A DNA stretch of 63,530 nt, filler included, from Phoronis australis (taxonomy: Eukaryota > Animalia > Phoronida): assembly GCA_002633005.1 (NCBI GenBank). It is 5 parts of 5 records of this genome, joined end to end, with 100 filler letters (N's around TTAATTAATTAA, not from the genome) between each part and the next. Parts side by side here need not be neighbours in the genome. Positions count along the whole stretch, not along the records: positions 27,218 to 52,544 come from NMRA01000161.1; 4 more parts are not named here. One strand, written 5' to 3'. The position numbers and the translations under genes were made by a program. Position 1 is the first letter of the stretch, and each line of letters starts with the position of its first letter. This document shows positions 8,090-52,661 of the stretch, in pieces. The notes beneath the pieces were generated by a model, which worked only from the letters and a program-made list of their open reading frames with translations, ran no database searches and was not told where the DNA came from.

Positions 8090-8560
8090 AGGATGCTCGG
8101 ACACATACAAAGAGTACTCGTCGGAAGATCTATTAAAATGTGGTATCTGCATTTGAAGGTGGGATGACTAAAGCTGACGCAGCTAAAACGTTTAAGGTCC
8201 TGCAAAATCGCCTAAAGAGCGACCACATGAAATGTCACAGGGGCCAGAAGGTGCTGTCGGACACTGAAGAAAAATCAGTCGCAGATAATGTAGCAGTGAT
8301 GGCTGATTGGGGTATCCCCATAGACAAGCTGGATTTACGCCTGATGGTGAAGGCCTTTGTAGACAAAAGTGTTCACAAAATGAAACGGTTCAAATTAAAC
8401 TTACCTGGGAGAGAATTGGTTCACAGTTTGGAGAAAAGACACAAGCAAACCCTCGTAAGCAGAACATGTCAAAATACAAATTGTGCAAAAGCAAAAGTTA
8501 GCCAAGAAATCGTCTAAAAGTTTGTTGGAATCCTCGAGAAAACCTTGTACGGTGAACTGT
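8090..8560 (+). mobile_element. pogo/Tigger-type DNA transposase N-terminal fragment (psq/CENP-B HTH)
   Basis: ORF 8140..8517 contains VLSDTEEKSV...MADWGIPIDKLDLRLMVK...FKLNLPGRELVHSLEKRH, typical of CENP-B-type HTH; no DDE domain follows. Confidence 0.7.
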
Positions 8561-18399: not shown

Positions 18400-20420
18400 T
18401 TTGATGACCTTTCCACTAATTGACCTCTTTCGGTGCATTATGAGCTCGGTTTAGGGAATAATTGTAAACTCGATTAAAAGTGTGACCCCATTGGTACACA
18501 AAATGACCTGATAATTTAGAATTCAAACTCAATCACATTTACTAAACAGATATGTAATTTCAAAGTCTCCAGCTCAAAATTTTAGTTTGCACTCAATGAC
18601 CTTCAACATATTTTTTCTGATGGGTTAGGCATATTTTGTAGTAAAATAGGGCTTTCGATTGAAATGGTGACTTACACCAGTGTGCTGAACTTGAAAAGAA
18701 TTCCATAAAAAATGGAGGGGGTATAACATTTTGAACGTTAGATGACCTTTGCACTAATTGACCCTATCCGGTGCATTATAAGCGTCTTGAGGAGAATTGT
18801 TGCAAAGCCTGTGGAAAGTGTGTTTAATGCTGAGAATCGCAAATGTCTAACGGTTGACACATCAGAATTCTTGGTGAATGAAAAGGAAAAATTTTCAGAA
18901 GAAAAATGCACCTAATGACCCCATGGTTGCACTAAATGACCTGAAACTTTATACTTTGAATTGAATTAAATGTACCAATCAGACTTGGGAATTTGAAGTG
19001 TCTAGCTCAAACTTTTAGTCTGCACTCAGTGATCTTTGACCTATTTTCTCTGATTGGTTTGCCATATTGCTAAGTGAAGTAGGGTATTTCTCTGGCGTGT
19101 AGGTTTACACCAATGTGCTGGAATTGAAGAGAATTCCTTGAAAAATATAGGAAGGAGAAATAACCTTTTCAATAGTAGGTGATAGTAGGTGACTTTTGCA
19201 CTAATTGACCATATCCAGTGCATTACTAGCCCTTTAAGTAGAACTAACTGCAAAGTCCGTGAAAATTATACTTATTGCTGAGAATCAGAGTTGTCCAACG
19301 GTTGACACATCAGAATACTTGGTGAATGAAAAGGACACATTTTCAGAAGAAAAATCCACCTAATGACCCCATGTTTGCACTTAATGACCTGAAACTGGAT
19401 TCCGATCTCATTTACCTGTGGCAATCAAACCTGTCAATTTGAAGTATCTAGCTCAAAATTTTAGTTTGCACTCAATGACCTTCGACATATTTTTTTCTGA
19501 TGGGTTAGGCATATTTTGTAGTAAAATAGGACTTTCGATTGGCATGGTGACTTACACAAGTGTGCTGAACTTGAAAAGAATTCCTTGAAAAATGGAGGGG
19601 ATATAACATTTTGAACGTTTGATGACCTTCGTACTAATTGACCCTATCCGGTGCATTATAAGCGTCTTGAGGAGAATTATTGCAAAGCCTGTGGAAAGTG
19701 TGTTTAATGCTGAGAATCGCAAATGTCTAACGATTGACACATCAGAATTCTTGGTGAATGAAAAGGACAAATTTTCAGAAGAAAATTGCATCTAATGACC
19801 CCATGGTTGCACTAAATGACCTGAAACTTTGTACTTTGAATTGAATTAGACGTACCAATCAGACTTGGGAATTTGAAGTGTCTAGCTCAAACTTTTAGTC
19901 TGCACTCAGTGACCTTTGACCTATTTTCTCTGATTGGGTTGCCATATTGCTAAGTAAAGTAGGGTATTTCTCTGGCGTGTAGGTTTACACCAATGTGCTG
20001 GAATTGAAGAGAAATACTTGAAAAATATAGGAGGGAGAAATAACCTTTTCAATAGTAGGTGATAGTAGGTGACTTTTGCACTAATTGACCCTATCCAGTG
20101 CATTACTAGCCCTTTAAGTAGAACTAACTGCAAAGTCCGTGAAAATTATACTTATTGCTGAGAATCAGAGTTGTCTAACGGTTGACACATCAGAATACTT
20201 GGTGAATGAAAAGGACAAATTTTCAGAAGAAAAATGCACCTAATGACCCCATGTTTGCACTTAATGACCTGAATCTAGATTCCGATTTCATTTACCTGTG
20301 GCAATCAAACCTGTCAATTTGAAGTATCTAGCTCAAAATTTTACTTTGCACCTAATGACCTTTGACCTATTTCACCTGATTAGATGATCCGATTACATAG
20401 AAAAGTAACTTTTTAAATTG
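18400..20420 (+). repeat. Tandem array, 880-bp unit made of two diverged ~440-bp subunits (about 2.3 units)
   Basis: Near-identical ORFs at 19041 and 19921 (period 880); ctagctcaaa(a/c)tttta..tgcac recurs at ~18570, 19000, 19448, 19880 and 20327. Confidence 0.9.
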
Positions 20421-20646
20421 TCATGTTGACTTATACCTGTGCAACGTATTTGAAAAAGATAGCTTTAAAACTGAAGGATGAGCAGCATTTTGGAATTTAT
20501 ATGACCTTTACACCAAACGACCTCTTCCCGTGCAATATGGAATATGATTATATAACCAATCCAAATATATATACTGTCAAATGTCATATGCTGAATTTAA
20601 AGACACCTGCACCCAATTTGGAGTTATTAAGCCTCAAAGTTGGTCG

Positions 20647-23587: not shown

Positions 23588-24572
23588 GTAAGTAATACAT
23601 GTACATTGTTCAATTTTAAGACACCTTCCTACTAAAGGGTTTACACTTTAGACAAATTATCGGATCGATAGTCACTGGGCTTACACGTTGCTCGGTAAGA
23701 AAACGCGTCCAGGGTGATGCAATTCAGGCCTGGATTTGTACAAGCAGTCCTAATGCGCATATGATTTAAACCCAAAGATTAAAGACAGGTTATTTTACGA
23801 ACTCTGATGAAATGCATCATAAATCCTGCTGGGTGTTGGGTTTCTTAACTGAACATTTCTGGAATCAAATATTGTTGTCTTGAGCAAACACCAGTTCATC
23901 ATGAAAAGTAAATTTGCTACTATCAACACGTTAGAGAATTGGTCGATTGATTAATCATAATAATAGGACAGTGGTGTCGGATATTTGTGCAATAAATTAC
24001 GCGAATCAAAAAGGTCGACACGCTATTTAAGCCTTCTACATGCCCATTGGAACAATGTGCTTTATCTTTACTGCTCTTACCCAGCAAGTCTATCACCCTG
24101 CTTGACGAATTTTGCAAGTCTCGTGCTTAAAACCTCCAATACCCTAATTTTGACAATTGGTTGCATTGTTGGCATCCCAAGCCTCCCTTTATAGCCATGT
24201 AGATCACAATTGTGAATTCAGTATCCAAAAACGAGAAAATGGGAGAAGAGCAATTCCAATTCAAAGTTTTCTATATCCACGGGCATGTGTGTGACGTATG
24301 GAAGTACTCAGCGACAGTGTGTCATGTCCAACATGCGAGTTTCTTGTACGAATACGTGCCATACCCGCTTTTCTCCATTGGTCAAATACTAAGTTGTCAT
24401 AACCACCACAAACGCAACGGCTCCTCATTCCTTATTATACCGTCGAAAACGGGAAAACGAACAGCACTATCGAACGACTTCTCACACTAAACACAACTGA
24501 GGTTGACTGGAGCTGTAATTGGTTTTCCCATTTTATGTATCCACCGATAAACGCTAGAGATCATTTAGTTAA

Positions 24573-25388
24573 AGGCGAAGGCAACCTTTTTTCATGTCAT
24601 TTTGAGCTAAAATAAGGTTGGTTGGTTATCCTAGACATATTTTCCACTTAATTACAGCTTTTCGTAATTTTGTTAATTACTCGTCCGCTACTCAGGAAGT
24701 GACGTTTTAGGAGGCAGGCATTTCGCCACACGACACTATGTAAGCAGTTTGGGTCAGTGCTCAGGTCACCAAGGCCAGTGGGAGTGTGTCGCGGGACACT
24801 CTGGCAAGTTGGACAGTTGTTCCTCTGTCCGTGGTATGCCGGAGGTCCACTTAACCGTGTCCAGTAGTGGCTTGGCCTCGTCGAACTCTAAACAGCACGA
24901 GCATTCCATGGAGGTAGGCATAACAACGCACACAGTGCATTTGCACCAAGATGTGTCACCACGTCTGTCCTCAGTAGCCGCCTCGTTTCTCTCAACAGCT
25001 GCCTGTGCCTGTGCGTACTCTGCCTCGTTATACANNNNNNNNNNNNNNNNNNNNNNNNNNNNNNNNNNNNNNNNNNNNNNNNNNNNNNNNNNNNNNNNNN
25101 NNNNNNNNNNNNNNNNNNNNNNNNNNNNNNNNNNNNNNNNNNNNNNNNNNNNNNNNNNNNNNNNNNNNNNNNNNNNNNNNNNNNNNNNNNNNNNNNNNNN
25201 NNNNNNNNNNNNNNNAAAAAGAGTGAAGCAGGAGGGGAAACGCTTGCCTCCTAAAACGTCACTTCCGGAATAGAGGACGAGTAATTAATAAAATTGCGAA
25301 AAGCTGTAATTAAGTGGAAAATATGTCTAGGATAACCAACCAACCTTATTTTAGCTCAAAATGACATGAAAAAAGGTTGCCTTCGCCT
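24573..25388 (-). mobile_element. Kolobok-like non-autonomous DNA transposon, ~145-bp TIRs, TTAA TSD, internal Cys-rich coding remnant
   Basis: TTAA|aggcgaaggcaacc...ggttgccttcgcct|TTAA; long near-perfect TIRs; minus strand reads WCKCTVCVVMPTSMECSCCLE; spans gap 25035-25215. Confidence 0.85.
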
Positions 25389-26079
25389 TTAAGACATCGT
25401 AAGATAGTCTTTGCTGGTGTTCTAATTTTCAAAACTGATCTACTGATGGGGTTGTTTTTCATGCTTCTGTTATGAAATTGGTGACTTTATGTATTTTATC
25501 GTTTTTGTTATTTATGGCACATCTCACTGGTTTACTCCCAAATCATTCCTTTCCAATGTTTTTGTACGTAAAACATCGACCTACACGATGTGCTGGAGTT
25601 TCAGCTTTGATCCAGCATTTCAAACAGCAAGACGCTGTAGCTCGACCTGCTGTGGTGTTATGTGTTTGCAGGTTATAGTGACCCGTATGCTTCTACATTG
25701 CTACATGCAGTTGAGATCTTATCAGAATCAAGCGCTTGGTAATAAAACTGGAAGTTACCCAGATCACCATCTGTTTTGTTCTTCTGCAATCACTTCTGTT
25801 AGTTTAAGATGTCTTCCATTTGTTCGAATAGGAAGTACCTTATTCCTGAAACGCAGGAGGCATAAGGGACGGATAATATTGGTTCAAGTCCTTGGAATTC
25901 AAATTCTGAACCAAGTGTGGCTAATCGATCAGCTGCCTCATTACCCTGGGTGCCAAAACATTCAGAGGTACATTCAACTGTGACACGATAATATTTACCT
26001 TACATTTTTTAAATTAGGAAATCAGAAACATTGCTGCACATTATGTAATTTCACAGCAGTGTTTTTAAAAGGCCGCTGA

Positions 26080-26700: not shown

Positions 26701-29095
26701 ATAGAGGGCAGACGTCTAAAGCAGCTGTGAAAATGACAAAATGGTCATAAGGTGACGCACAATATATCGAATTCACTTTAAAGCGTGAATGTGGCGTCAT
26801 CTTCGTAATGCTCTGAGTTAGAGCAATGGCATCAATCAAAATATTTCGCCACGCAGTGCTTCCAGTTTACCTCCGTCATGGTTGTACGGACATTCTCATT
26901 AACATGTCATTTTGTCACCAATTCGTTATCAATGCCACTTGTAAATTTTTCAACTAAGCACGAAAAGAAGGTGGGGGGTGGGGGATTGTCGTATTTGTGC
27001 CTCAACTTCTCATAAGTTCTATAGCCCTACATGTGGTAAACCAGTCAGACTATCAGGGTGCAGTAATGCGATAGTACCATGAAATCATGAAAAGTCTTAT
27101 ATACCCTTAGAATACTGNNNNNNNNNNNNNNNNNNNNNNNNNNNNNNNNNNNNNNNNNNNNTTAATTAATTAANNNNNNNNNNNNNNNNNNNNNNNNNNN
27201 NNNNNNNNNNNNNNNNNCGTTGGTCCTTCGGTCACGTATGCACTCAGCTGGCTGGCTTTCAGTTCACTTTGTTTTGGTTATGTCTGCACAAGTTAACAGA
27301 GAGTTTTGACCCCGACTGACCCAGGTAGCACTGTCGTACTGTAGACTGGAATTCCAGGCGAAATACTATTGTAAACATAACTTTGCTCTGCAGACTGTCA
27401 CATAGTGCCACCTATTTTGGATAGCGGGAACAAAGCATGGCTCGTCCGTCATGTTGCGCTATCTATTGTTCTTTATTGTAGTTCATTATATGCTCTCTAT
27501 TTGATTTCTTCGCTCGTCACATGAATGTTACCGTGTTATTCATTATTGTCGCCTTGATCGTCATGATTGTCGTCGTCCTCCCCATTGTCGTCTTTCGATT
27601 AATTCCGCCAAGTGTCGCTCCTCCGAGCGCTCTCGTTCTTAATACTGTAATTACAGTAAAAATTCTTCAGTTTGGTAATCTTTAACTCTCAAGTGTTTTT
27701 CTGAGACGTCGATACTTTTGATATTCTTCTTAGTAACGCAAGTGAAATTCTATTATGGTTAGGAATAATATGAGACCGATTTTATGAAAGTAAAATGACT
27801 TATTCAATTTCCCTTATTTAGTGAGGCTAATAGGACAAACTGCAGCTCTAACACAGGCAAGTGTCTGTCTGCAAGTTGCCATATTACTGCATTTTGATGC
27901 CAACAACAGTGCGCACTTGTGATTCCGTATTTTCAAGGAATAGATGAGTTTCCATACTATAAGACACAAAAAGTAGGAAGCACAAGCAAATGACAAAATC
28001 TTCCACATTTGACTAAATACCTGAATGGAGACAAAGTTCGCATTAAGCATCCAGGTTTTATGGCAAAAATTATAACATTACCAAAAGTCTACATAAGTGC
28101 CATGTTTTCCTTCATTTCAAAATGTGGAGAAGGAGAGTTTTCATCCTGGATGTTGTTATCAAGTTCGTAAGTCCAACATTTGGTCATAAACAATATTTTT
28201 TATTATAGATGATCACAGGCAAATCATTACTATCACATACTAGACAGAAATATTTTTAATTTTAGGGAATTAACTTAAAACGCTAAAACTTCCAGCAGTC
28301 GCTTAGGTGAGTACAAGGAGTAAAGGTAAACCGGAGATGCCTGCTGACTTAATCTCTGTGAAATCAGTCCAATAACCATAGATTATGAAAGAAAAACCTG
28401 TTCCTATTAGGAGAATAATTTCACAATTTGATCCTCACTGTCTGACACCTCTTTCTAACCACTTATCTGTCTAGAATGTCGATAAATATGGTTTCGAATT
28501 GGAGAATATAAGGCGTTTCAAATGATGCAGAATTTAGACCATCATTGTGAACAAAGAACTCGAGAGGTAACAGGAATCAAAGCCAAACTTTCTACTTGAC
28601 CTTACAGGAACTGTCGAGCTGGACTATAAGTTACCTGTTTTCTGGTGTGACACGACACCAGGAGAACTGATTTCAAGGATCACCTGAAGGGGTAAAATTT
28701 TCAACAAATTCAGCATTCAAGAGCCAGTTGCCTTGACAACATGAGGAATATCGCGACTTTAAGCTACATTTTAACCTGTTTAGCTGGTTGCGAAACGAAA
28801 ATCGAATTATTCTTTTTACTTTCATAAAATCAGTCTTGTAATACACCGTGCCATGATAAAATTCTCTTTCCATTACCAACAATATCATCGTGACTGAAGA
28901 AAACACTTCATGGTTTATTGGGGTTGGCCAACCCTTAAACTGCAAATGAAAATGGGACTTGGGCGTAATGGAAATGTCATCTTATCAGCTACAGCTTTAA
29001 GTTCCAGACAATATATTTTTTTATCATTATATTAATGTCCAGTTTGATGATGGTTTTTGTCAGTATCACATTTGATTGCAGACATCACAAAGAAG

Positions 29096-29225
29096 ATGAA
29101 AATGAGGCTAAGCGAGGTTTGCTTTGTGCTATTTGTGGTCCTGGGGTGTATATCAGCCTACACACTACGAGACCTGTTCCATGCTCTTGAAGACAAAGAG
29201 AACGAAAAGAAAAGCCAAGCAGAAG
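29096..29225 (+). CDS. Secreted peptide precursor copy 1, coding exon 1 (signal peptide MKMRLSEVCFVLFVVLGCISA plus YTLRDLFHALEDKENEKKSQAE)
   Basis: Acceptor ttgcAG at 29080-29081; ATG at 29096; basic n-region, hydrophobic core and I-S-A cleavage site; phase-1 donor G/GTACT at 29226; conserved in copy 2. Confidence 0.85.
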
Positions 29226-30153
29226 GTACTTGTAACAAAAGTCTGTGACCCTCCAAGCATTTACCAAGCGTTCCTTGATTGGATTCGACATTATAAATGG
29301 CGTACCAGATGCATTGGAAATTTTGTAATGCTCATCACACTAATAGTAACTTCTATGGTTACTTTGTACTCCCAGTTTTACTCGTACTAGTGTAGAACAG
29401 TATTGAAGTAAGGTTACGTAGAGTCATATCGACAAGTCTATGTATTTAGCCATATACCTGTAAAACTATAGATTTACAGTTAGTAAATATACAGTATGTA
29501 CATTTTGAAAGTAGAAAGCCTGTACAATTTGATTTTCAGTTTTACAACAATCTCCCATTAACTGGGCCACAAATAAAATTAAGCAAAAAAAGAAATGTAC
29601 ATTTGTAATAAATTAACGGCAACAAAAACCTAACCAAATCTGGTTTGATATATGTCCAAGAAGATATCTCAAAAAACCTGTTGCAGTTTTCGAAATTATT
29701 TCGTTTTCGTTTCATGCAACTCTAGATTTTTTTCAGAAAATTCATAAAAATCACATCTTTTAATAGATGCTCAAGCAAAACTGAAACACTTGAAAATTCT
29801 TTTATAAAACAGTGCGTGAAGCCAAGTACATGAAGGTTTCCTGTGAATTCAATAGACCATTTCTGAGTTGTGAAATTAGCATTGGATACTTTTCCATGAT
29901 CCTACAATTAACCTTAAAAAAATCTTATAACTGAATCCCATCACTAAGCTGCTCGTTTTGAAAACTCGTTTTCGCTAACAGAAATGTAATGATTATGGAA
30001 GATGTAACTAACAGTAACATGCCTGTACCTTCACACCAAAAGGAATGTTGAATCAATCAATCAAGCAAGCAAATACTTAGAAGTTCAACATAGTAATTGC
30101 CTGTACAAGTGCCTGAAAACTTTCAGCCACTGCTCTTCATTTTGTACTTTCAG

Positions 30154-30698
30154 CCGAGGTCAAGAAAGACACTATTCCAGAACAATCAAATGTTAGTGGT
30201 AAGAATGACAATAGAGAAAAAGAACTTCTAGAAAAATTGTTGAAGTTACTTGAAGACAGGAAGAAGGCAAAACAAGTTCTGATCAACAACAATGACTTGA
30301 AGAAAACTGTGACTGAGAAAAAGACAGTGACGCAACAGAAAGCGCTTAACAACAGGGACCAGTACTTTTCACCAAGTGGTTTAACCGAGCGAAACTTCGG
30401 ACCGCAGGGCGTTCCACAAGTCCGAAATTTTGGGCCCCAGGGAGGTCCTGACCCTCAGCTGAGGAACTTCGGACCTCAAGGCGTACCCCAACAAGGATCG
30501 AATTTACAGCAGAAGCGAAATTTCGGAATGTATGGGCGTGAGCTGCAGAACCTGAAAAGTAATGCGAACAGGGCATTTGGACCATCTGGCCTGGACTATA
30601 ATCAAAGATATTTAGACGCGTATGACAGAGACTATTTAAGAACTATGATTGATGAAGAAATAGAGAGATTGTTCTTTAGATCTAAGAATCGGCAATAG
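30154..30698 (+). CDS. Secreted peptide precursor copy 1, coding exon 2 (pro-region, R-NFGPQG x3, KR-NFGMY-G-R, R-AFGPSG); 224-aa precursor
   Basis: Acceptor tactttcAG at 30152-30153 joins exon 1 in phase 1 (G+CC = Ala) and runs in frame into ORF 30237..30698; TAG stop; AATAAA about 75 nt downstream. Confidence 0.85.
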
Positions 30699-30771
30699 AG
30701 AGCATTACACAGCTAAGAATTCCAAGAAATTGAATTAAAATTAACAATCAAAACACAAAAATTATTTTTGT

Positions 30772-30782
30772 AATAAAATAAA
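30772..30782 (+). promoter_or_regulatory. Overlapping polyadenylation signals (AATAAAATAAA) of precursor copy 1
   Basis: Two overlapping AATAAA motifs downstream of the stop codon; conserved in copy 2 at 50804-50814. Confidence 0.6.
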
Positions 30783-32930
30783 GCTAAGTTCTTTCAAGAC
30801 CATAGCGAATTGGACGCAGTCCAGTACTTTTGGAATTAATGTATTTTTCTTTACAAGCTTGGCTTTGAGGCATGTTACCATTTTATATGCTTTAGCCAGA
30901 TCTCAGAGATGTCTGCTGTCTAACAGATCAAACTAAGAGCAGGCAGCTTTATGTCTAAACCTGACTTTCCGGAGGTCAACTTTATCAGAGGATGCATGAA
31001 AAACAGTACAATGTAGATAAGTTCAAAGTGATCCATTCAGGATGTGAGGCTTGATCACTGTTTCACACTTTCGCCATAGAAATGTATGAGTGCAGAGGTC
31101 AGACGTCAAGGCAATGAACTAGACAGATAGTAAGATTCTTTTAACTGAACATTATATAGTGTCAGTTATCGATTATCTTAAAGCAGAAAAGCCCATGTAT
31201 TAGGTAGACCAATTCTTACATTTTACCTAGTGTTGGGTAGTAGTCACTTATAGGGGTCTAGCATTTGAAAAATGGTTTTCTTCTCTGAATTAAGCAGGCA
31301 CCAAACTGGTTCTCAAAATGCAGACTCCTGTAAGTGGCTTGATGCCCACTGTTGTATATTTCTGACTCATGGGCGTGTATTCTCCTCAGAAACCTTTTTG
31401 GTGATTCCTAGATTTAAGACCAATTAATGAGTATTTTTCAGTTATTTTGCAGAAAATAATTCCCTACTAGCCAGTTCTTCAAAGAGCAGCTTTGTGTATT
31501 GCAAGCAATCAAAATGTTATCATGACAGTTGTATGCCAGTGTTGTATAAAACCATGTTACTAGCATAGTAGAATTTTGTGTATTCTAGCTGAAAACGTGA
31601 CAAAATAAAATTTCACTTGCCTGTCAAATTGTGCACTGAATAGGTGAAATATTACCATGACATGAAGTTTCAATGCTGTGTCAAATTACAGTTACAATTT
31701 TTTCAATTTGGGATACAATATGTCGTAAAATTTAAATTTCGTTTGTCAACTTTCTGAACAACTGTAACTAACTTTTTTGGAAATTTCACTTTTTTATAGT
31801 TTGATCTGTATGGCATATCTTTTGGCGCATATTTGGTGAAATTTGTAGCATAATTATGTGGCGATGTATTTAACTTCTCAAAAATAGAAACATGGATATA
31901 TTTAGCAAATATTATGTCCAAGTTGAAGAATTTTTACCAGACTTCAAAGAAATACTGATTTGCCAGTGCTTTAAGGTTACCACCAACCTTATTCACAAAA
32001 AATGGCCACAAGTGTCTAGACAAATACCATATCTTCATTCTCAGGGAACTTCAAATACAAAGTATACACTGCGTGGCGAAAAAAAAATTAAAAGAACCAC
32101 CTTCGAACTGAACAACCACATGCATATTTGTTTACTTATTCGAGGTCAAAGGTTAAAGGGCTTTCAATCAAATCGAATCTCCCGCCAGGTACAGAACAGC
32201 TTCGTATACCCTCAGGCCTTTTATTCACAAAATCGCCATAACATTGAGTCAACGAGCTGTACTTATGGTGCGGGGGAAAACAAAGACACAACATAGTTTT
32301 GGTCCTATTAGAGTTGGGAGTTGTGCGTCTACATGCATATGACCGTTGGCGTTGAGAACGAATGCTATGTTTGCCTGATTCTTCTGTGGTCACCAACAAC
32401 TTGCGAAAAGAGATAAATCCTCACCCTAATTCCTTCATTCAATTAATAAATTGACACTTCAATGTTTCGATCTCATGCTAACGACATGCTTTAACCACCG
32501 ATTCGATTTTTGTTATCCATTTCTTACTTGGTTCCGTACCAGTCTCCAAGCACGTGAGGTGTACAGGCTAAGTGTATAACAATGAACTGTGCCCTATTTA
32601 TATAAAGTAGGCCAAAACGTCATAAACAATAGTAAGAATTAGCTGGGAAACGGTACATTTTAATGATAATTAAGTTAATTTTGCACTGCAAAATGAGTAG
32701 ACAATGCGAGTGAATGTTGAAATAGCGAGCACATTTAAGGCTTCCATAGGTTATGTGTACCGACAACAAGTTTTCACCGATTAATTAACCGAAGATTTTC
32801 ACTTGTCCCAGTTTAATCGGCTTTTTCTCGGCTTCGGTAAATCGACTTTATTTGAACTTAGGAACACAAGTTCTCGAAAACGGCTCGGCATTTCGCTGAA
32901 ACTTTCCAAATTTAATATTTAGTCATCAGT

Positions 32931-37544: not shown

Positions 37545-39137
37545 AGGAGAATGCCACCCAAAAAACAACCTATTTTGTATCAATTTAGATCGAGTGGTTC
37601 TACTCGATAACGACACGTTCAGTTGTGTTACCTGACACCTGACGGTAGACAGAGGTGTTGAACTTATGCAATGACGTAATTGGTTTCACACGCAGTCTGT
37701 TCAGCAGTTCACAACACGGGTTACTGGTGTCAGCTTATCGCTTGAATTCGTTTAACACCAATAAATCATCAAACAGCGATGTAAAACCCTTAAAAATACA
37801 TCGAGTTCTTATAAGAAGTGTTGTTTTATTTCGCTGTTACGGATTTACTGGTATTTGGACCGTAGCCTACAAAGTTCGGCAGGCCAATTTACCAAGGTCC
37901 GTAGCAGCAGTTTGGTGTCTGTTCGGAGATAAATTCGAAGTATTCTTCCGTGAAATAAAGACAGGAGAACCTAACTGTGTTTTTTATACTTGTATTTTTG
38001 AGTTCTAAACACAAAAAACGCTTGTTATCCCCGGCCAGTGGCTCGGAACCCGATCAGACCCGTCGCGGCCGCCGAGACTGGTACGAACATAAACCAGCTA
38101 GTGGAAACTTAACCTCCAGTCACGAAAAGACTATAATAATTGAGCCAAAAAAATAATGTGCACATATATTATTTTTGTGAATTAGCCACGAAACTGAAAA
38201 CCTACTTACTTGTCAGGGGCACTCACTGGTTGTAAAAATGATTTGAATAATGTTTTTGTATTTCAAAATAAAGATTCCCCTAACATGTGACCATAGCATG
38301 TAAAATCGAGTGTTTCACAACAGCTTTCTGTCAGCAAACACTGAATTAGCATGCGCTCAGACGGCCTCGGTGCCCGGTCAATTGCCTTTGTTGCCGGCAT
38401 CAAAAGCCGGTAACGCAGTGGTTAATTCATTGCTGGGTTCTCAAATCATTTGCAATCACGAGCACTCAAGGAATAACAAATTGTATCTAATGAGACAGAC
38501 TTTGTTCCAGTTTCAGGATGAGAATGATTCATTTTGAAACAGAATGCAAAATAATAAACGTTTACATGGCAACTCGCCCGGCGCCAATCCCGACTTAGTC
38601 AATAGCTCATCTGACAAAGACTTCATGGGTCGGATCGTTATTCACAGGCTATCAGTTCGAACCGGAATATACTGATCAAGAAATACTAGAGAGGCGCCGT
38701 GAACATGCACAGGCAATGGAACATATGGATAGTTCTTTGGTAAGCCGGAATTCGTCAGAGAAATCACTGTCGAGGAATTATGCCGGCCACAGACATGGAG
38801 ATGTTTCACAGCCTCATACTTGCTATTAACAGTGTACCTTTCGTTCTTCACTACCACGAGCCACTTCCTAAGCATTTCGGGCTCTAGAGGAAGTCGAAAA
38901 AACGATATACACGCCTTTTCGCCTCTTCATAGTTCGGACAAGCAGGAATGATGCACCGCAATATAGCGGCATTCACTCTGCAGACGAACCACTGATGTCG
39001 CTGCAGCATTTCTCACCTTCCTCACAGGTTAATGCGACACCTCTCGGCAAGGTGAGGTCGACCGTATAAGAGGCGATGTGTATATAGACCAATTAACATG
39101 GTAAAACAAGACTAATTAAATCGGGTGGCATTCTCCT
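37545..39137 (-). mobile_element. Kolobok-like DNA transposon derivative (1.6 kb), TTAA TSD, 15-bp perfect TIR, degenerate THAP domain
   Basis: TTAA|aggagaatgccaccc...gggtggcattctcct|TTAA; minus strand gives RCIIPACPN, then after a frameshift ISFFRLPLEPEMLRKWLVVVK...HVCGRH (THAP C2CH). Confidence 0.85.
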
Positions 39138-41027
39138 TTAATGTTCATGGCAAATTTAATATGTTTCATACTTAACTTTCATGTTGTAATTTTCGGAAGG
39201 ATCATCCGAATTCCGTGTTAGTGTTGCCAAACTGTATGACATATTCTCTATGCTGAAATGCATACAATTTTTCAACATTTTTCTCAAAGCTTAAGTGATG
39301 GTGAACAGCCAACAACAAACTTTTATTATTTAATCGCATTCATTCACAGAAGTTTCTGGGACACAATAATTGCTTTTATTTCATATTGCAAACAAACTTG
39401 CAATAGCTCACTAATGTGAGTTTCCATGTGATGTCACTGGAAGGAGGGCAAAACCTTCCATATTGTTCTTGTTTTGCCCTTAGTCTTTGCTACACACGCG
39501 AAATCTTACTAGAGTTCTTATGGTGAATTTTACGCTTAAAACATTAACACGATTTATGGGATGATAGATGGTTCGTGGAATAACTGTGAATGGACGAAGA
39601 AAATGTGAACTTGTTATGTTGTGCGAAGCTGTGAACGGACTGAAATTGGAACTCAACTCGGTCTAGACCTGAATGCCCCAGGCATACAGGGGCGATAGTA
39701 TATCCCCATAAAGTTACTCATTTCAAAATACAGCTTATAAAATCCACTGAAACATGTATATGTGCACATGGAGTTATAATTAGCACATACCCTGTTTCTG
39801 GATACAATTTAGTCGACAAATAACTTAAACATATCCATGAAAACCTCATGGTTCGCTCAAGTTTCTCTCATCGGGTGCCACTTTGAGGAAGTTACATCAA
39901 ATCACCCCTGTTGATGAACAAAAAGTCTAAGAGACACAAATCTTACAAATTTCACTTGATCTTTTCCCCATGCTATTGTGCAAGTGTCATGCGCCACTCA
40001 GGTCTCGCGCTTCCCTCAGTCTCATGCTAGCCTTTGCCTCATGTACTCGCGTGACTCAGCTGAAATACCTTGTGGTTATCGTGCGTGCGGTCAAACTTAA
40101 CAGTAACCAAAAAGTGGAGTTGGAATTCTTCGCCAAAGTCACGTGAATTCCCGTAACTATGCTTCATCGAAGACATGTTTAAAAGCAGAAACAATCACTG
40201 AAGAAAGTAAGCGCCTTATTAGGAGATATTTTTAGGTGTAGAACGTATTTTTGATGCGGTGAAAACTTAATCAGTGAGCGAATTTCGCCTACCGCCCGTT
40301 TAAAATACACGGGACAAAATTAGTACAGAACGCGATGGAACGTATTGCAGTGCGAATCTGAATTTCATTTGTCATAACAGCTTGTTTCACACTAAAAGAT
40401 TAAAAACTCAAAGTAAACAACAGAATACATTCTGCTACCGTATCGGGCAAATAGCCAAACGACAAGCTTTTGCCCCACTTCCGGTGACGTTACACTTAAG
40501 TCTCACATAATCTCACGTTATTTCTATAAACTCGCAAAAAAACTTTGCAACTGGGTGTTAGGCGTCACTATGATGTCAGAAATTGTTGAAGTTTGTAATT
40601 TATTCTCATGTGGAGAATTTCTCGCTTATACTGGTTATCTGATTCCCTAAACCCCACACAACTTTTATGATGCCTACTAAGCACGCTCTTTGTATTGATG
40701 TAGATCTGAGCTAATGAAGTGGAAAGGTAATACCTATCACTACTTTCTTAACAACGGTGGTTGTTATTACATCCAAATTCCACAGAGTAAAAGCTGCAAT
40801 ATGGAGAGCAGTTTTAACTTGGTACATCAAGAGACTAAAAAGTAAATTTGCATTGATCTTGGCAAAGGGTCACTTCCCAAAGGAACGTTGGTTTTAAATA
40901 GGTTTCATACCCGTTTTCATCACTTTATTTTAATACTCCTGTCTAGTTATTTTTTCTTACCAGTTAGGGTTGTTGTCTTTTTATTTTGTGTTTAAACAAA
41001 ATATCAGAACAACTTAGAAGTTAGTTA

Positions 41028-42548
41028 CCGTAATCACCGTAATAATCGCCCAGGGCGCTTAGAAAAGTTTGTTTCAGGGGGGCGCTTATTACAACCCAAG
41101 GCCGTTGAAACCCAGTCTCCGAAACGAGTGAAATTGGAAGCTAAGATTCATTATATTAATGCTCTGTGACGTATCTGTAATCTATGAAAGACTTTCTACA
41201 AAACCGTGGTGCATTACTATCAAACTTTGCTGCTAAATTACGATCATTTTACAGAAAATTGTGCTGAAATAACAGGGCGAAAACTCGCCCACTGCCTGCC
41301 TCGCAATCGTCGATATGGCGACTTGAATACTTGAATAAAAATACAGTTTCGACTCGAGCAAATTACTTGAAATCCTCCTTAAGTTTTGCAAGTTTGACAT
41401 CCCTAAGATTTTTAAGTTCACGTGGAGTCGGCATCACGGCAGGTTTAAATACAAATCTGTGCTAATATCGTGCCATCTACATGTATGACCGGCAACATGA
41501 AAAAATGTCTGGACGAACACACATGTTGTTGTCACGTGAAGTTTCTTTTGAAGTTGTCTGCGTTTGTGAGTAAGCGAGCACGTGCGTGTCACCAGAGTTC
41601 ATTTGCCAGAGCTGAGATAGTCTTTTGGCCAGAGCCACGCAATCTATCAAACCAGATGTGCATTGTATCTAAAGAAATTTGCACAAGCAGTAGGCCTAAA
41701 CCCGGCAGAGTGTGTTTCATTCAGCACTTGCCGGTCTCATGTGCTAAAAACGTTCGACATTTATCTCGGAAAGGCCATATTAGTCGCCGAGTGGCTGGAT
41801 GTTTACGTGACTATCTGACAGATGTTTTTTGGCGTAAGGGTGTGTAAGCATTCACTGTCAGTGGTTATTTTATCAGATATTTGGCTTAAAAACACCAATT
41901 ATGGTTAATCAAACAATTCATTTTAAAAATTACGCAAACATTTTTACAGAATGAGAAACTGTCGGAAATTAGTGCCAATATTCATTTCTTGCCGATGCTA
42001 TGCTACCCGTTTCATGAATGGTAGTTCCCGACTAATGCCTTTGATTATAGGTTCATGTATTTAGCGCGCGCTTCCTGGCCATGTGCTTTTAACACTGGCC
42101 AAGCTGTTTATTAGTCTTCGATTCGCAGTTTTCACGTGTAGGCCTACAAAGAAATTTGGATTCATGCTGAAAGCGGGAAATATCTACAAACCAATCCCGT
42201 AGACAAGTATACTACTTCTGTTCTGAAAGGCCACACCATTGGTCCTCGCAATATCGGCAGAACGTCTGTGTTCGTTTTGAGAAATGGCGGAAGTTTGAAG
42301 TGTATAGTCAAGGCTAAGTACCGACATAACGGCAAGGCTCGTGGTCTACAAATTCAGCGCACAATGATTTTTTTCAGGACTGTCGGACATCATTGATAAA
42401 TTGAAGACGTTATTGTAGAATTTTAGGACTGTAGGCAACGCATTTTTTGCACGTACACGTTCAAGGACTGGGCGCTTATTTAAGCAAAGTCTGAAAACGT
42501 GTGGGGGGACGCTTATAGGGGCATGGGCGGTTATTACGGCGAATACGG
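41028..42548. mobile_element. Tc1/mariner-pogo-type non-autonomous element (1.5 kb), TA TSD
   Basis: TA|ccgtaatcaccgtaataatcgccc...gggcggttattacggcgaatacgg|TA; 24-bp TIR with 3 mismatches; subterminal gggcgctta repeats. Confidence 0.8.
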
Positions 42549-44682: not shown

Positions 44683-45747
44683 TTAAGACTAATTTGTTTG
44701 CAAAGAGTAAATTTCTTGATAAAAATGAAGAATAAGTAAATATCGAAAGGACACAGATCTGTTCTAGTGTGCCCACTCCTCTGCAGGTTGAAAACTGCCT
44801 AATCTGTGAGCAAATGCTGGGCAATGTGGGGTTATCTCAAGGCCGACACATTCACAGGGGAATAAATTTTTTGTAGACAGGATACTTCAAAAATGTGATC
44901 GGCTGGATATAAATCATATGCCTTGGACTCAATCACGGCCTGGGTAAATTCATTATGCTCAAGGGGGTGTAAGGTTGTGACACCAACAGCTAAAGACGTG
45001 CATCACTCGTTAGGGCTCAAATGATGTTCCCACACAAATTAATTTTAGACACTGATGCACCAAATTGCTATGTCTTAGACATAGATCTGTATGCTCTTGC
45101 AAAAGAACAACAGGAAGTTGGCAACTGTCCTCCCAGCATGCACCTAGCCACATCTTGGTCTGCTCTACAGTTAGGTTCTTTTTAGCATTTTGATTGGGCA
45201 CTGACGGGATGAGATAAGGCCAGAGGTACAAGTCAAAGACCATTCACTCACTCACCACACTGGGATGACATGGTCTGCTTCCCAACACGCAGATATTAAG
45301 CTGTATTTAAGGCAATGTGAACTTAAGCATTTTCAAAAACTTTTTTTCAGATATCCATGTTGAGTGTATGGTCTAGATGCACCGGTGGTTAAAGGGTTTG
45401 TGATCCATCTATAGGGGACAGTTTGCCTTCAATTCAACTGACATTTAGAGGTAAGTTGTTTTACATTCATTTTGCAGTTTCCCTACTGTTTTAACACAAT
45501 TTTTGAATTGTTCTCATTTCTACCAAAGTCTTCTAGACAAATTTCAAAAAGTAATGGTAGCTTGGCATACTAACTTTTACTTATATCATTTCAATGGTGT
45601 ACTAAATTTCACTAAAGCAACTACAGTAACTTTTTCATGGCAGCATTACGAAAGCTGTTCTAATTGTATCTAGGCACGCAGCGTTATTCCCGAAATAGAG
45701 TATTTCACAAATATTTAAAATACAACCAGTGCACTACTTGATTTTTG

Positions 45748-45949: not shown

Positions 45950-47747
45950 AAGCACAGATTTTGGCATATTCAAACAATGTTGCATGTGTCTAACTATGAA
46001 AAATACGTCATTTCGGATATACCGTATGTGCATTCCATGAAATACTTCATCATATGAAATCTACACCATTCTTTATATAAATTCTGAGGCACAATGTATT
46101 GGAAGAATATATTATTATAAGTAACATAACATGAGCGGCCTCCTTGGTGGATCCTTTTTATTAATTAACATTGCCATGTATTTTGTATGTGGTTTCTTCA
46201 ACATACTTAGCTAATTCCACCTGTTTAAGCCTTGCTTATGACAGTTATGTCATCAGTTCTGTGAAGCAATTTGATTATTAACCTCCATTTCAATATTATG
46301 AATAGTGGCGTCACATATCCTTTGGTAGTCATCTGATCTATAAGGAAAGACAAGCATCTAACATAAGGAAACTTTTCAGCTGTCTTCTTAAGTTTTAGTA
46401 GGCGAAAGTCCTGCTGTTGCTCTTATTCTTAATACTGTAATTACAGTAAAACTTGTCCAGTTTGGTAGTCTTTAACTCTCAAGCGTTTTTCTGAGATGTT
46501 GATACTTTCGATATTCTTCTTAGTAACAAAAGTAAAATTCTATTATGGTAAGGAATAATATGAGACCGATTTTATGAGAGTAAAATGACTAATTCAAAAT
46601 TCCTTATTTAGTCAGGTGAATTATTAGGGCAGCTCTAACAAAGGCAAGTGTCTGTCTGGATGTTGCCACATTGCTGCGTTTTGATGCCAACAACAGTTCG
46701 CACTTGTAAATCTGTATTTTCAAGGAATAGATGAGTTTCCATACTATTCGACACAATGGCTGATGTTAATGGTGACAATGTTCGCATTAAGCATCCACGT
46801 TTTATGGCATAAATTATAACACTACCAAAAGTCTACATAACTGCCATGTTTTCCTTCATTTTAAAATGTGGAGAAGGATAATTTTCATCCTGGCTGTTGT
46901 TATCAAGTTTGAGTGTCTAACAATTGGTCATAAACAATATTTTTATTATAGTTGATCACAGGCAAATCGTCATTATCACATACTAGATAGAAATATTTTT
47001 AATTTTAGGGAAATTACTTAAAATGCTAAAACTTTCAGCAGTCGCTTTGGTGAGTACAAGGAGTAAAGGTCAACCAGAGATGCCCGCTGAGTTAATCTCT
47101 GTGAAATCAGTCCAATAACCATAGATTATGAAACAAAAACCTGTTCCTATTAGGATAATAATTTCACAATTTGATCTTCACTGTCTGACACCTCTTTCTA
47201 ACCACTTATCTGTCTAGAATGTCGAAAAATATGGTTTCGAACTGGAGAATATAAGGCGTTTCAAACGATGTAGAATTTAGACCATCGTTGTGAACAAAGA
47301 ACTCAAGAGGTAACAAGAATCAAAGCCAAACTTTCTACTTGGCCTTAGCAGGAACTGTCGAGCTGGAATATAAGTTACCTGATTTCTGGTGCAGCAGGAC
47401 ACCAGGAGAACTGATTTCAAGGATCACCTGAAGGCGTCAAATTTTTTTAAAAATTCAGCATTCAACAGCCAGTTGCCTTGACAACATGGGGAATATCGCG
47501 ACTTTAAGCTACATTTTGCCCTGTTTAGCTGGTTGAGAAACGAAAATCGAATTAGTCTTTTTACTTTCATAAAATCAGTCTTGTAATACACCTTGCCATG
47601 ATAAAATTCTCTTTCCATTACATACAATAACATCGTGACTGAAGAAAACACTTCAGGGTTTATTGGGGTTGGCCAACCCTTAAACTGCAAATGAAAATGT
47701 GACTTGGGCTAGTAATGGAAATATCATCTTATCAGCTACAGCTTTAA

Positions 47748-49068
47748 AGTCCTTGTTGCAAACTGCCCATGTGGTTCTAGTATCCGAAAATACTTACTAC
47801 ATAAATTCTTATTTTCGACACCCTTTCTTTATATTCTTTTCGCCTTTCTTGCCAAACGCGATTTTTTAACAGTATTTGACCCTTCTCTCTGAGCGTATGA
47901 TTACCGGTTGTCATCGGTTATTTCCGTACCCACATTTCCGGCTCATCAGTTCAGGAACTTGTCCTGAACGCCGCCATTTTTTCCTTGTAACTGAATGTGC
48001 TATGGCTTGCTNNNNNNNNNNNNNNNNNNNNNNNNNNNNNNNNNNNNNNNNNNNNNNNNNNNNNNNNNNNNNNNNNNNNNNNNNNNNNNNNNNNNNNNNN
48101 NNNNNNNNNNNNNNNNNNNNNNNNNNNNNNNNNNNNNNNNNNNNNNNNNNNNNNNNNNNNNNNNNNNNNNNNNNNNNNNNNNNNNNNNNNNNNNNNNNNN
48201 NNNNNNNNNNNNNNNNNNNNNNNNNNNNNNNNNNNNNNNNNNNNNNNNNNNNNNNNNNNNNNNNNNNNNNNNNNNNNNNNNNNNNNNNNNNNNNNNNNNN
48301 NNNNNNNNNNNNNNNNNNNNNNNNNNNNNNNNNNNNNNNNNNNNNNNNNNNNNNNNNNNNNNNNNNNNNNNNNNNNNNNNNNNNNNNNNNNNNNNNNNNN
48401 NNNNNNNNNNNNNNNNNNNNNNNNNNNNNNNNNNNNNNNNNNNNNNNNNNNNNNNNNNNNNNNNNNNNNNNNNNNNNNNNNNNNNNNNNNNNNNNNNNNN
48501 NNNNNNNNNNNNNNNNNNNNNNNNNNNNNNNNNNNNNNNNNNNNNNNNNNNNNNNNNNNNNNNNNNNNNNNNNNNNNNNNNNNNNNNNNNNNNNNNNNNN
48601 NNNNNNNNNNNNNNNNNNNNNNNNNNNNNNNNNNNNNNNNNNNNNNNNNNNNNNNNNNNNNNNNNNNNNNNNNNNNNNNNNNNNNNNNNNNNNNNNNNNN
48701 NNNNNNNNNNNNNNNNNNNNNNNNNNNNNNNNNNNNNNNNNNNNNNNNNNNNNNNNNNNNNNNNNNNNNNNNNNNNNNNNNNNNNNNNNNNNNNNNNNNN
48801 NNNNNNNCCCCGTTTGCTGGCTGGTAACAGTACAGGCACTGCTCCAGTCGCACTGACGGCGTTTTCTCGGCCTGGGTTCCTGAATGAATTGTACTTCCGG
48901 GTTCGCGGCAAGTTCAAAATGGCGGTGTTTCTTCGGGTGCGAATCGTGAGTGGCGCGTTCATTTAAACTGTTTTCGAGTACGGATCGTGTATTAGTTATG
49001 GGGTAGGTACTTCTTGGATCCTTATAACATCTTCTAACCATGTAATAAGGGTTAACAACGCGTGAGAC
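47748..49068. mobile_element. Insertion specific to duplicate copy 2 (probable DNA transposon; mostly gap)
   Basis: Copy 1 has the empty site gctttaa/gttccagaca at ~29000. Degenerate subterminal inverted similarity: gttctagtatccgaaaatacttactacataa versus the reverse complement of ttatggggtaggtacttcttggatccttataac. Confidence 0.6.
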
Positions 49069-49162
49069 AAGTTCCAGACAGTTATATTTTTGATCATTAT
49101 ATTAATGTCCAGTTTGATGATGGTTTTTGTCAGTATCACATTTGATTGCAGACATCACAAAG

Positions 49163-49292
49163 ATGAAAATGAGGCTAAGTGAGGTTTGCTTTGTGCTATT
49201 TCTGGTCCTGGGGTGTATATCAGCCTACACACTACGAGACTTGTTCCAAGCTCTTGAAGACAAAGAGAACGAAAAGAAAAGCCAAGCAGAAG
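49163..49292 (+). CDS. Secreted peptide precursor copy 2, coding exon 1 (MKMRLSEVCFVLFLVLGCISA plus YTLRDLFQALEDKENEKKSQAE)
   Basis: Paralogue of 29096-29225 with 4 substitutions by manual alignment; same acceptor, ATG and phase-1 donor. Confidence 0.85.
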
Positions 49293-50230
49293 GTACTTGC
49301 AACAAAAGTCTGAGACCCTCCCAAGCATTTACCAGACGTTCCATGACTGGATTCGACATTATAAATGGTGTACCAGCTGCATTGGAAATTTTGTAATCCA
49401 CATCACACTAATAGTTACTTCTATGATTATTTTTGTACTCTCAATTTTCTCATACTAGTGTAGAACAATAGTGAAGTAAGGTTACGTAGGGCCACATCGA
49501 CACGTCTGTGTCATAGCAAAATACCTGTAAAACTATAGATTTCAAGTTAGTAAACATACAGTGTGTACATTTTGAAAGTAGAAAGCCTGTACAATTTGAT
49601 TTTCAATTTTACAGGAATCTCCCATTAATTGGGCCACATCACCAAGCCTTTTAAATAAAATTAAACAAAGAAAGAAATGTACATCTGTAACAAATTAACG
49701 GTAACAAAAACATAACCGAAATCTGGTTTGATATAAATGTCCAAGATGATACCTTGAAAAACCTGTTACAGTTTTCGAAATTATTTCGTTTTCGTTTCAT
49801 ACAACTCTGGATTTTTTCAGAAAATTCATAAAAATCACGTCTATTAATAGACGCTCAAGCAAAACTGAAACATTTGAAAATTCCTTTATAAAACAGTGCA
49901 CAAAGCATAGTACATGAAGGATTCCTAGGAGTTCAATCAACCATTTCCGAGTTGTGATTTTACCATTGGATACTTTCCCATGATCCTACAAAATCTTAAA
50001 AAATCTTATAACTGAATCCCATCACTAAGCTGCTCCTTTTGAAAACTCGTTTTCGCTAACAGAAATGTAATGATTATGGAAGATGTAACTTACAGTAACA
50101 TGCCTTTACCTTCACACCAAAAGGAATGTTGAATCAATCAATCAAGCAAATACTTAGAAGTTCAACATAGTAATTGCCTGTACAAGTGCTTGAAAACTTT
50201 CAGCCACTGCTCTTCATTTTGTACTTTCAG

Positions 50231-50730
50231 CCGAGGTCAAGAAAGACAAAATTCCAGAACAATCAAATGCTAGTGGTAAGAATGACAGTAGAGAAAAAGA
50301 ACTTCTAGAAAAATTGTTGAAGTTACTTGAAGACAGGAAGAAGGCAAAACAAGTTCTGATCAACAACAATGACTTGAAGAAAACTGTGACTGAGAAAAAA
50401 ACAGTGACGCAACAGAAAGCGCTTAACAACAGGGACCAGTACTTTTCACCAAGTCAGGACGTTCCGCAAGTCCGAAATTTTGGGTACTACCCATGGAAGT
50501 CAAGACCTCAAGGCGTACCCCAAAAAGGATCGAATTTACACCAGAAGCGAAATTGGGGAAAGTATGGGCGTGAGCTGCAGAACCTGAAAAGTAATGCGAA
50601 CAGGGCATTCGGACCATCTGGCCTGGACTATAATCAAAGATATTTAGATGCGTATGACAGAGAGTATTTAAGAACTATGATTTATGAAGAAATAGAGAGA
50701 TTGTTCTTTAGATCTAAGAATCGGCAATAG
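50231..50730 (+). CDS. Secreted peptide precursor copy 2, coding exon 2 (R-NFGYYPWKSR, KR-NWGKY-G-R, R-AFGPSG); 209-aa precursor
   Basis: Acceptor tactttcAG at 50229-50230; in frame with ORF 50314..50730; all indels relative to copy 1 preserve the frame. Confidence 0.85.
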
Positions 50731-50803
50731 AGAGCATTACACAGCTAAGAATTCCAAGAAATTGAATTAAAATTAACAATAAAAACACAAAAATTATTTT
50801 TGT

Positions 50804-50814
50804 AATAAAATAAA
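50804..50814 (+). promoter_or_regulatory. Polyadenylation signals of precursor copy 2
   Basis: AATAAAATAAA, same position relative to the stop codon as in copy 1. Confidence 0.6.
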
Positions 50815-51050
50815 GCTAAGTTCTTTCAAGACCATAGCGAATTGGACACAGTCCAGTACTTTTGGAATTAATGTATTTTTCTTTACAAGCTTGGCTTTGA
50901 GGCATGTTACCAGTTTATATGCTTTAGCCAGATCTCAGAGATGTCTGCTGTCTAACAGATCAAACTAAGAGCAGGCAGCTTTATGTCTAAACCTGACTTT
51001 CCGGACGTCAACTTTATCAGAGGATGCACGAAAAACAGTACAATGTAGAT

Positions 51051-52544
51051 ACCGTAAACGTTCGGGTTAACGCCCTGGGCGGTTAAATTGGCAAACACAA
51101 AAAATCGGGGGTGGGCAGTTAACCAGACATGGGCGCTTTAACGTGAAATTTCAAGAAATCTAGGGTGGGCAGTTAACCGAACATGGGCGCTTATTACGAC
51201 AGGCAACCGCCCTGGGCGGTTAATCTTACATCGTACTCGGAACGCGTAGCACTTTTCAAAGAGCGTTATCGTCACGTCGCCAGATGATGGGAAAAATGTC
51301 ATAACAGCGGATGATCCCAACAAAGATTCTCTTGCCCTCAGATTAGTTATTCGCTATTAAATTTACAGAATTGCTGAGTAATAATAGCCCCGTGGTGTCC
51401 TGCGGTCTTGTTACTTTGCCCTCTAGAGCACAGACGACCAGTGACCACGCAGCCTCCACTAGGATTACAACTATTTCAAGATGTGACCTTGTTAAAGTGC
51501 ACGCGTGCAAGCTTCACGTGTTGCAGAGGTCACAGCAGACATCAAATTTATGGTTACAGTCTCGTACTGAGCTGCCAAGTTCATAGTCTGAGAGCAGTTT
51601 TAAAATTAGTAGTAATAAAAGTTTGAAAAACTTAATTCAAATGTTTTTTGTGTTTATGATGTTTACAGTCGACACTCCGTGACTCAATGACATTTAGTTC
51701 TGCGGCTAGCTGTTTTATCTCGACCGCCCGGCATTGCTCAGTTGCCGTTGCGCCAAACATGCTCGGCAAAGAACTAGGCCTAAGACAAGAATCGGGGTTA
51801 AGCGGCCGTGAGCCACTCGTCAATCAAGCATAAAATTTCGAGCCACGACATACATACGTGATAAAACGCCACAAAACAGCGATGTTTCAATTCATTCTTA
51901 AACGATCACCTTACCAAACTTCGTGGTGGAAAAACATTTATTTTTCATGCAAGATGTCCAGATTATCCTATTTATATCACTTGCAATATCTCACTGCGGC
52001 ACTGTTCGGTCCCGCAGTTAGCGCGCAATGTCTCAGTCGGCTGACAATCGTGACTTGGAAATGCCGTCAAGTCATATAACGGCCTCTTTCAATATGCATG
52101 TCGTTTTTATGGCCAAAGACATGCTATGAACATTCCCACTAAATAAAATTGGTTCTAACCCCGGTGTTTAAGGTAAACGGCGGGGTATGGAAAATTGAAC
52201 TAGACCGTATTTATCCACCTTGGCTGAGACGCGCTCGGCTCATGCTCAAAGGGATGCCGCCAAGCTGCTCTATTCATCGAGTCACGAGCGAGGATAATTG
52301 ACTTCGCTCATGCGGATATGATCAGCTGATTACAGTCTAGCCTAACAACTGTACTTTTTATGGAGAGAATTTTACGTAGTTTTTACTGTAATATTTGAAA
52401 AGAGGAGCGAAAACAAATACGAATACAACTTTGAATTTTTCAAATCGGCCCAGGATAAGAGATTTTGCAACACAGAAACACTCACGATTACTTTCATTCG
52501 GCGCGCACGAATACAAAAATATAGGACCCAAGTTAGGATTGTAT
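51051..52544. mobile_element. TA-flanked pogo/Tc1-type element related to 41028-42548, cut by a gap
   Basis: Starts TA|ccgtaaacgttcgggttaacgccctgggc with repeated gggc(a/g)gttaa and gggcgctt motifs; segment 52120-52544 recurs at ~54944-55620. Confidence 0.55.
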
Positions 52545-52661
52545 NNNNNNNNNNNNNNNNNNNNNNNNNNNNNNNNNNNNNNNNNNNNTTAATTAATTAA
52601 NNNNNNNNNNNNNNNNNNNNNNNNNNNNNNNNNNNNNNNNNNNNATTAGTTTTATTGTACC

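Follow-up and report, generated by a model that had tools for sequence, protein, structure and literature searches.

We report a two-copy, spliced and transcribed gene in the analysed stretch of Phoronis australis DNA (63,530 nucleotides, filler included; hereafter the window), and we consider it somewhat better than an even chance that its product is a secreted precursor cut into neuropeptide- or hormone-like peptides with an N-terminal x-Phe/Trp-Gly motif. The pair likely represents one conserved and one diversifying cassette of a lineage-specific neuropeptide-like precursor: one copy seems fixed, and the other varies by substitutions and frame-preserving indels in an otherwise 98% identical stretch. 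If true, the pair would show, as is rarely possible, a peptide signal in the course of diversification following duplication, the route by which novel hormones, pheromones and venom peptides are proposed to originate; without processing, the gene would encode an ordinary orphan secreted protein. As candidate ligands, two pentapeptide amides and a few 10-17-mers can be drawn from this precursor, for which our searches gave no family; the set is small and cheap to test. The features of copy 1, together with the upstream exon assembled 5' of copy 2, are as follows.

27629..31019, plus strand: duplicated block with copy 1, 88-91% identical to 46419-51051 (self-BLAST)
29082..29225, plus strand: first coding exon, with 14 nt of 5' UTR, ATG at 29096, signal peptide and pro-region start (read depth, loose read ends)
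29096..29158, plus strand: predicted signal peptide, residues 1-21 (hydropathy), presumably cut after residue 20 or 21
29226..30153, plus strand: intron of 928 nt, GT-AG, phase 1 (junction reads)
30154..31000, plus strand: last exon, with the stop at 30698 and a 3' UTR supported by stranded reads to at least 31000, the mapped edge
30357..30389, plus strand: unit DQYFSPSGLTE, after R111; does not match x-F-G
30393..30512, plus strand: three NFGPQG units (residues 124-133, 135-146 and 148-163), each after a lone Arg
30519..30536, plus strand: NFGMYG unit between KR and R; candidate NFGMY-amide
30573..30605, plus strand: AFGPSGLDYNQ unit, after R183; the same in both copies
45419..45450, plus strand: 3' end of the upstream exon, with a GT donor at 45451 (loose read ends, sequence match); likely non-coding

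Splicing of 29096-29225 to 30154-30698, as proposed in the sequence-only reading, yields 675 nt (224 amino acids plus stop) between a GT donor and an AG acceptor, and it was confirmed by RNA mapped to 28700-31000 from four public runs of two studies (X2, X3 and X4 as raw reads, X1 as contigs). The 29225/30154 junction, for which that reading had suggested an RNA-seq check, was spanned by 41, 38 and 89 stranded reads in X2, X3 and X4, respectively, both gene copies being pooled in these counts. Junction and strand-specific coverage were present in 3/3 raw runs, and one X1 contig, from the second study, carried the same junction. All first mates in exon-internal bins of the raw stranded runs fell on the minus strand, as most stranded library types would show for a plus-strand RNA; the gene is transcribed from the plus strand. 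Expression was moderate, at ~24, 26 and 59 RPKM-like units in the three samples (copies pooled).

Loose read ends at 29080 match window positions 45419-45450, which end in a GT donor, pointing to an additional, likely non-coding exon upstream of 29082. Since transcripts carry this exon, the gene has at least three exons, and not two as originally claimed. The upstream exon match occurs once in the window, 5' of copy 2, with no second match; the version belonging to copy 1 is absent from the assembled window and possibly falls in the gap at 27118-27217. This gap, the expected place of that exon, is the first of four filler joins (27118-27217, 52545-52644, 57157-57256 and 60853-60952), which appear as paired 44-N gaps around a 12-nt spacer that, in all but the last join, reads as a TTAA-repeat linker. 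Short repeats in or near the gene (28777-28950, 29393-29780 and 49000-49121) attract both-strand reads from other transcripts and loose ends, and are not exons.

The layout of the precursor agrees with the secreted prepropeptide claimed earlier, being supported by the splice reads, the hydrophobic N-terminus, the repeated motif and the mostly synonymous differences of the X1 contigs (6/8; see below). The sole hydrophobic segment is N-terminal: residues 1-21 begin basic, the best Kyte-Doolittle 11-mer (residues 9-19) scores 3.17, the maximum past residue 25 is 0.41, and no transmembrane segment follows the N-terminal signal by hydropathy. Residues 22-111 are charged (21 K/R and 17 D/E in 90), residues 112-196 are rich in Gly, Pro and Gln (34/85 residues), and a charged tail follows. 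Copy 1 contains no Cys past residue 21, just as the sequence-only reading had stated. The last exon as modelled by AlphaFold (mean pLDDT 52, pTM 0.23), with a quality below what a fold search would need, showed helices on either side of an unstructured cassette.

Within this cassette, the motif R-x-[FWY]-G occurs five times in copy 1, a count reached in 0/20,000 shuffles (mean 0.09, maximum 3), although the motif was defined after inspecting the sequence and the test is accordingly post hoc. The five units—three NFGPQG, one NFGMYG and one AFGPSG—each directly follow an Arg, have Phe or Trp at position 2 in 5/5 cases and are mostly flanked by a lone Arg; they end in V, L, Q, G and Q, and what they have in common is N-terminal. 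Six related motifs had been claimed initially: five do match R-x-F-G, but DQYFSPSG has only F-x-PSG in common with the last unit.

How the precursor might be cut depends on its basic residues, among which KR164-165 is the sole dibasic and the sole canonical convertase site of the cassette. According to excerpts of PMC8557429, monobasic cuts seen by mass spectrometry usually fall at an Arg that another basic residue precedes at a distance of 3-6 positions. This helper-basic rule holds at R111 and R183 and fails at R123, R134, R147, R172 (the G-R) and R195; in copy 2, the G-R conforms to it via its Lys. Excerpts of PMC11087051 give G-R as an amidation flank. Lone-Arg cleavage is also supported by a parallel with the ophiuroid TRH precursor, in which QFSAG follows either KR or a lone Arg (predicted processing; PMC5627052 supplement file 4), just as NFG here follows KR once and a lone R three times. 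On the other hand, an oyster PFGx8amide confirmed by mass spectrometry retains an internal Y-G-R uncut, there before Pro, in the part of the PMC4200219 supplement covered. Overall, we lean slightly towards the production of NFGMY-amide from copy 1 and NWGKY-amide from copy 2. The former had been predicted from the KR-X-G-R signature, which was given as established; the amide is plausible, but R172 lacks a helper basic residue and the case is weaker than first stated. The separate release of the three NFGPQG units as non-amidated peptides seems to us a little less probable than its opposite, which would be a single 52-residue piece (112-163). The monobasic release claimed earlier agrees with the helper-basic rule at R183, but not at the NFGPQG sites R123, R134 and R147.

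For the steps past transcription, all of which we infer, the following scenario might be proposed. The precursor would enter the endoplasmic reticulum and the regulated secretory pathway, losing ~21 residues; prohormone convertases would cut at KR164-165 (the most secure site), R111 and R183; and a cut at G171-R172, followed by trimming and amidation, would give NFGMY-amide, or NWGKY-amide from copy 2. Because the common part of the units is N-terminal, recognition of the N-terminal x-aromatic-Gly would fall to a receptor that is presumably a GPCR. The copy 1 cassette would be held constant, with new ligand sequences arising in copy 2.

Copy 2 lies 20 kb downstream of copy 1, at 49163-50730, and encodes an intact 209-amino-acid precursor; no third copy was found within the window. 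Its features are listed below.

46419..51051, plus strand: duplicated block with copy 2 (self-BLAST)
49152..49292, plus strand: first coding exon, ATG at 49163
49293..50230, plus strand: intron of 938 nt, GT-AG
50231..50730, plus strand: last coding exon, completing the 209-amino-acid precursor
50476..50496, plus strand: unit NFGYYPW, replacing the three NFGPQG units; reads carry indels here that keep the frame
50551..50568, plus strand: NWGKYG between KR and R; candidate NWGKY-amide

Divergence between the copies is focused on the cassette, which shows 12/114 differences and 45 gapped bases, with a remnant beside NFGYYPW where copy 1 has its three NFGPQG units, against 19/955 in the intron end, flanking coding sequence and 3' UTR (p=3e-5, a value dependent on an ambiguous repeat alignment). 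Over the 5' part of the intron, the copies disagree at 67/669 sites. Since the low-divergence stretch takes in intron and UTR, the pattern suggests gene conversion between the copies, with the cassette escaping. Copy 2 keeps both KR and G-R, while 2/5 residues of the pentapeptide enclosed by them have changed (NFGMY to NWGKY); this pentapeptide holds 3/18 ungapped coding substitutions in 15/579 nt (p=0.009). Synonymous changes account for 5/18 substitutions between the copies (p=0.66-0.84), which is compatible with neutrality, so copy 2 may simply be under relaxed constraint.

RNA from the two studies adds a view of variation beyond the assembled copies. X1 contigs differ from copy 1 at eight coding positions, of which 6/8 are synonymous (p=0.002-0.006); the cassette differences are synonymous in 3/3 cases, leaving it unchanged at the protein level. 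The read variants were taken from summary tables of listed differences, are unphased and come from samples that may be pools; 7/13 listed differences in the copy 1 coding region, with both copies pooled, are residue-changing. At copy-2 diagnostic sites, reads without the copy-1 letter numbered 7/52, 4/49 and 8/56 in X2, 9/53, 8/51 and 14/42 in X3, and 0/105, 0/92 and 0/86 in X4. Pentapeptide codon 2 ended in C in 53/59 X2 and 30/44 X3 reads, and the Met letter at codon 4 was found in 28/60 and 21/44, respectively; the disagreement between these counts indicates a third pentapeptide form. At 50491-50494, insertions that add up to 3 nt were present in X2 (8+7 and 5 reads) and X3 (4+4 and 3 reads); they would place Gly before the Lys there. 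In X4, 15/27 reads lack 12 nt at 50483. Altogether, there are at least three transcript classes in X2 and X3 and two in X4, and the net cassette indels (45 nt between copies, 12 nt in X4, 3 nt in X2/X3) all preserve the frame. Within a single species, the cassettes of conserved neuropeptides seldom vary.

Homology searches used the last exon only as query, the first coding exon being included in Pfam only. Pfam matched 0/3 queries, the word-index search with exon 2 gave 0/499 candidates at E<=1, PDB returned two matches, both at E>=0.76, Atlas gave one 0.75 match and one blank, and pattern matches in metagenome contigs were confirmed in 0/332 and 0/597 cases. A phmmer search of 1.84 billion representatives found a sole match, P0001 (E 5e-5). 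This single-member protein from JGI/IMG contains EARNFGPEASS as a tandem repeat; we rejected it as chance because it has no signal peptide and the match is confined to the repeat. Two transposon-like ORFs of the window were blank in the word-index search as well, so coverage of animals may be poor and these negatives weak. Relatives in other species are the rule for conserved neuropeptides, and the failure to find one therefore counts against a neuropeptide-like precursor. A likeness to sea-urchin pedal peptides starting NFG gained no confirmation from the literature search, and the literature search listing for sperm-activating peptides gave no support for a link. The exact-motif literature search revealed no such precursor by title or abstract start. 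No matching precursor appeared in the supplement files covered, including those of PMC6188537, PMC11868395, PMC11087051 (12/31 files) and PMC4200219 (4/6 files), in which figure-printed or line-wrapped sequences can be missed, or in a term search of the PMC6425005 main text; the comparison literature also took in parts of PMC4772807, PMC9793003, PMC3432112 and PMC5656890. The sequence-only reading had not recognised the motif as any named family, and the Pfam, word-index, phmmer, PDB and literature searches likewise gave no credible match. Lineage-specific precursors without a family are common, e.g., PCNP2-20 in crinoids (excerpts of PMC9793003). The latter and the crinoid AN peptides resemble the present case in combining a signal peptide with short candidates that have no cross-phylum homologues, and for AN peptides, too, the defining motif is N-terminal; however, the x-F/W-G motif is absent from the crinoid peptides listed in those excerpts.

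In a rival explanation, the same processing serves external release, and the gene encodes an exocrine precursor (pheromone, gamete-recognition, defensive or venom peptide) whose duplication and hypervariability stem from recognition or an arms race. The tandem duplication, the near-identical signal, pro-region and UTR beside a divergent cassette (again by the alignment-dependent p=3e-5), the multiple transcript classes and the lack of homologues in sequence searches would all fit, and recurrent recruitment of neuropeptides into venoms is described in excerpts of PMC8557429. However, expression reaches just ~24-59 RPKM-like units in three samples, the cassette of copy 1 is protein-identical in the X1 contigs, and the precursor has neither a Cys framework nor a toxin-family match in Pfam or in PDB (none at E<0.76). 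We regard this explanation as unlikely; the toxin or pheromone candidacy raised in the sequence-only reading found no direct support, and expression is moderate.

Improbable in our estimation is a scenario of a new, N-terminally read x-Phe/Trp-Gly family with a D-residue at position 2, in which the ligand of one copy is fixed, whereas that of the other, tandem copy changes from individual to individual and serves in recognition (pheromone, gamete or defence); a signalling gene would here be in the course of taking on another role. The aromatic residue at position 2 and the very short candidate peptides are shared with achatin and NdWFamide, and the Phe-to-Trp swap between the copies falls at that position (excerpts of PMC11277431 and PMC4200219). 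Position 2 may be Phe, Tyr or Trp for the L/D isomerase of Aplysia to act (excerpts of PMC11277431). Achatins, however, are G-F-x-D tetrapeptides and NdWFamide is a tripeptide, unlike the pentapeptides here, and isomerisation is unreadable from DNA; D-forms of these peptides are a lead only, drawn by analogy.

An equally small chance, in our view, belongs to strong divergence from a known FG-initial family, either molluscan PFGx8amide or echinoderm pedal peptide/orcokinin. Oyster PFGx8amide precursors likewise combine a signal peptide with repeated units bearing an N-terminal x-F-G after a basic site, and their units KRPFGKMYGR and KRPFGKIYGKR resemble KRNFGMYGR; KR-PFG-KMYGR is the nearest printed motif to KR-NFG-MYGR in excerpts of PMC4200219, a likeness at the level of the motif. 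Yet those excerpts describe units with Pro at position 1, preceded by KR in the two precursors shown, ~11-12 residues long, mostly amidated and present in at least eight copies, whereas the units here start NFG, NWG or AFG, with Asn or Ala at position 1 of copy 1, and the cassette has one KR and one G-R, with a single unit bearing Gly before a basic residue. As regards echinoderm pedal peptides/orcokinins (excerpts of PMC5069636, PMC6586643 and PMC5627052), many have an N-terminal Phe-Gly, are often non-amidated and are of similar length. The hydrophobic residue (Phe) near the N-terminus that excerpts of PMC5069636 describe has its counterpart in position 2 of 5/5 copy 1 units, and one unit, NFGPQGGPDPQL, recalls their D-P core. 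Nevertheless, the (D/E)-P-(L/M) core, the hydrophobic, typically Phe, C-terminal residue and the dibasic flanks are all missing here, the nearest approach to the core being D-P-Q in one unit, and the supplements searched held no matching precursor. Echinoderm NG peptides (NGIWYamide; NGFFF and NGFFY units) are similar in being Asn-initial pentapeptides with an aromatic amide end after KR, but their order is N-G-aromatic versus N-aromatic-G here (Asn-Phe or Asn-Trp in place of the Asn-Gly of the NG peptide/neuropeptide S type), and the ophiuroid NG precursor combines GKR ends with a neurophysin domain rich in Cys (PMC5627052 supplement), in contrast to the precursor here, which has no Cys after the signal.

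Least probable of all, although most Arg sites are non-canonical, the cassette is Gly/Pro/Gln-rich, between-copy substitutions look neutral and the upstream exon was assembled once only, is a secreted, mostly unprocessed matrix or mucus protein (helix, disordered Gly/Pro/Gln repeat, helix) with copy 2 as a drifting duplicate or tandem-assembled haplotype, since the KR and GR brackets are retained around a changing pentapeptide, each motif unit directly follows Arg, indels preserve the frame despite their last-exon position, more than two transcript classes per run fit two loci (unless samples are pools), and the 67/669 differences in the 5' part of the intron are high for alleles. A processed, neuropeptide-like precursor encoded by two copies remains the explanation that we prefer.

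Finally, we would like to comment on the surroundings of the gene, which are of animal type, with ~39% GC, large introns and transposon remnants. Upstream, at 938-23590 on the plus strand, at least eight exon-like stretches (near 950, 3723, 6232, 10664, 11480, 22259, 22573 and 23498) carry one similar ankyrin repeat each and probably belong to one gene. Between the copies lies a weakly trypsin-like stretch (42419-42655, plus strand, E 0.0075), which we rejected as a processing enzyme because the His motif of the catalytic site is missing and a search for further trypsin exons gave none; it is probably a chance match or a relic. One of two 80%-identical elements (38403-39141 and 52663-53413) sits downstream of each precursor copy; they contain what is left of a THAP domain (38645-38926 on the minus strand, with a Pfam E of 1e-5). 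Another transposon-like structure, at 24569-25392, consists of 159-nt inverted repeats (95% identical) flanking a gap and a minus-strand Cys-rich ORF remnant. Two degenerate plus-strand ORFs, at 6604-7305 and 8137-8514, have no Pfam match, the first being also without a protein match; we take the first to resemble the end of a Penelope-type retroelement and the second the start of a pogo-type transposase. Palindrome enrichment of the kind seen across the window may be a feature of echinoderm, hemichordate and some mollusc genomes, for which the literature search gave no real support; here, TACATGTA occurs 16 times against 1.6 expected and TAGGCCTA five times against 0.4. A tandem array with a period of ~448 nt and 3.7 copies occupies 18357-20538.
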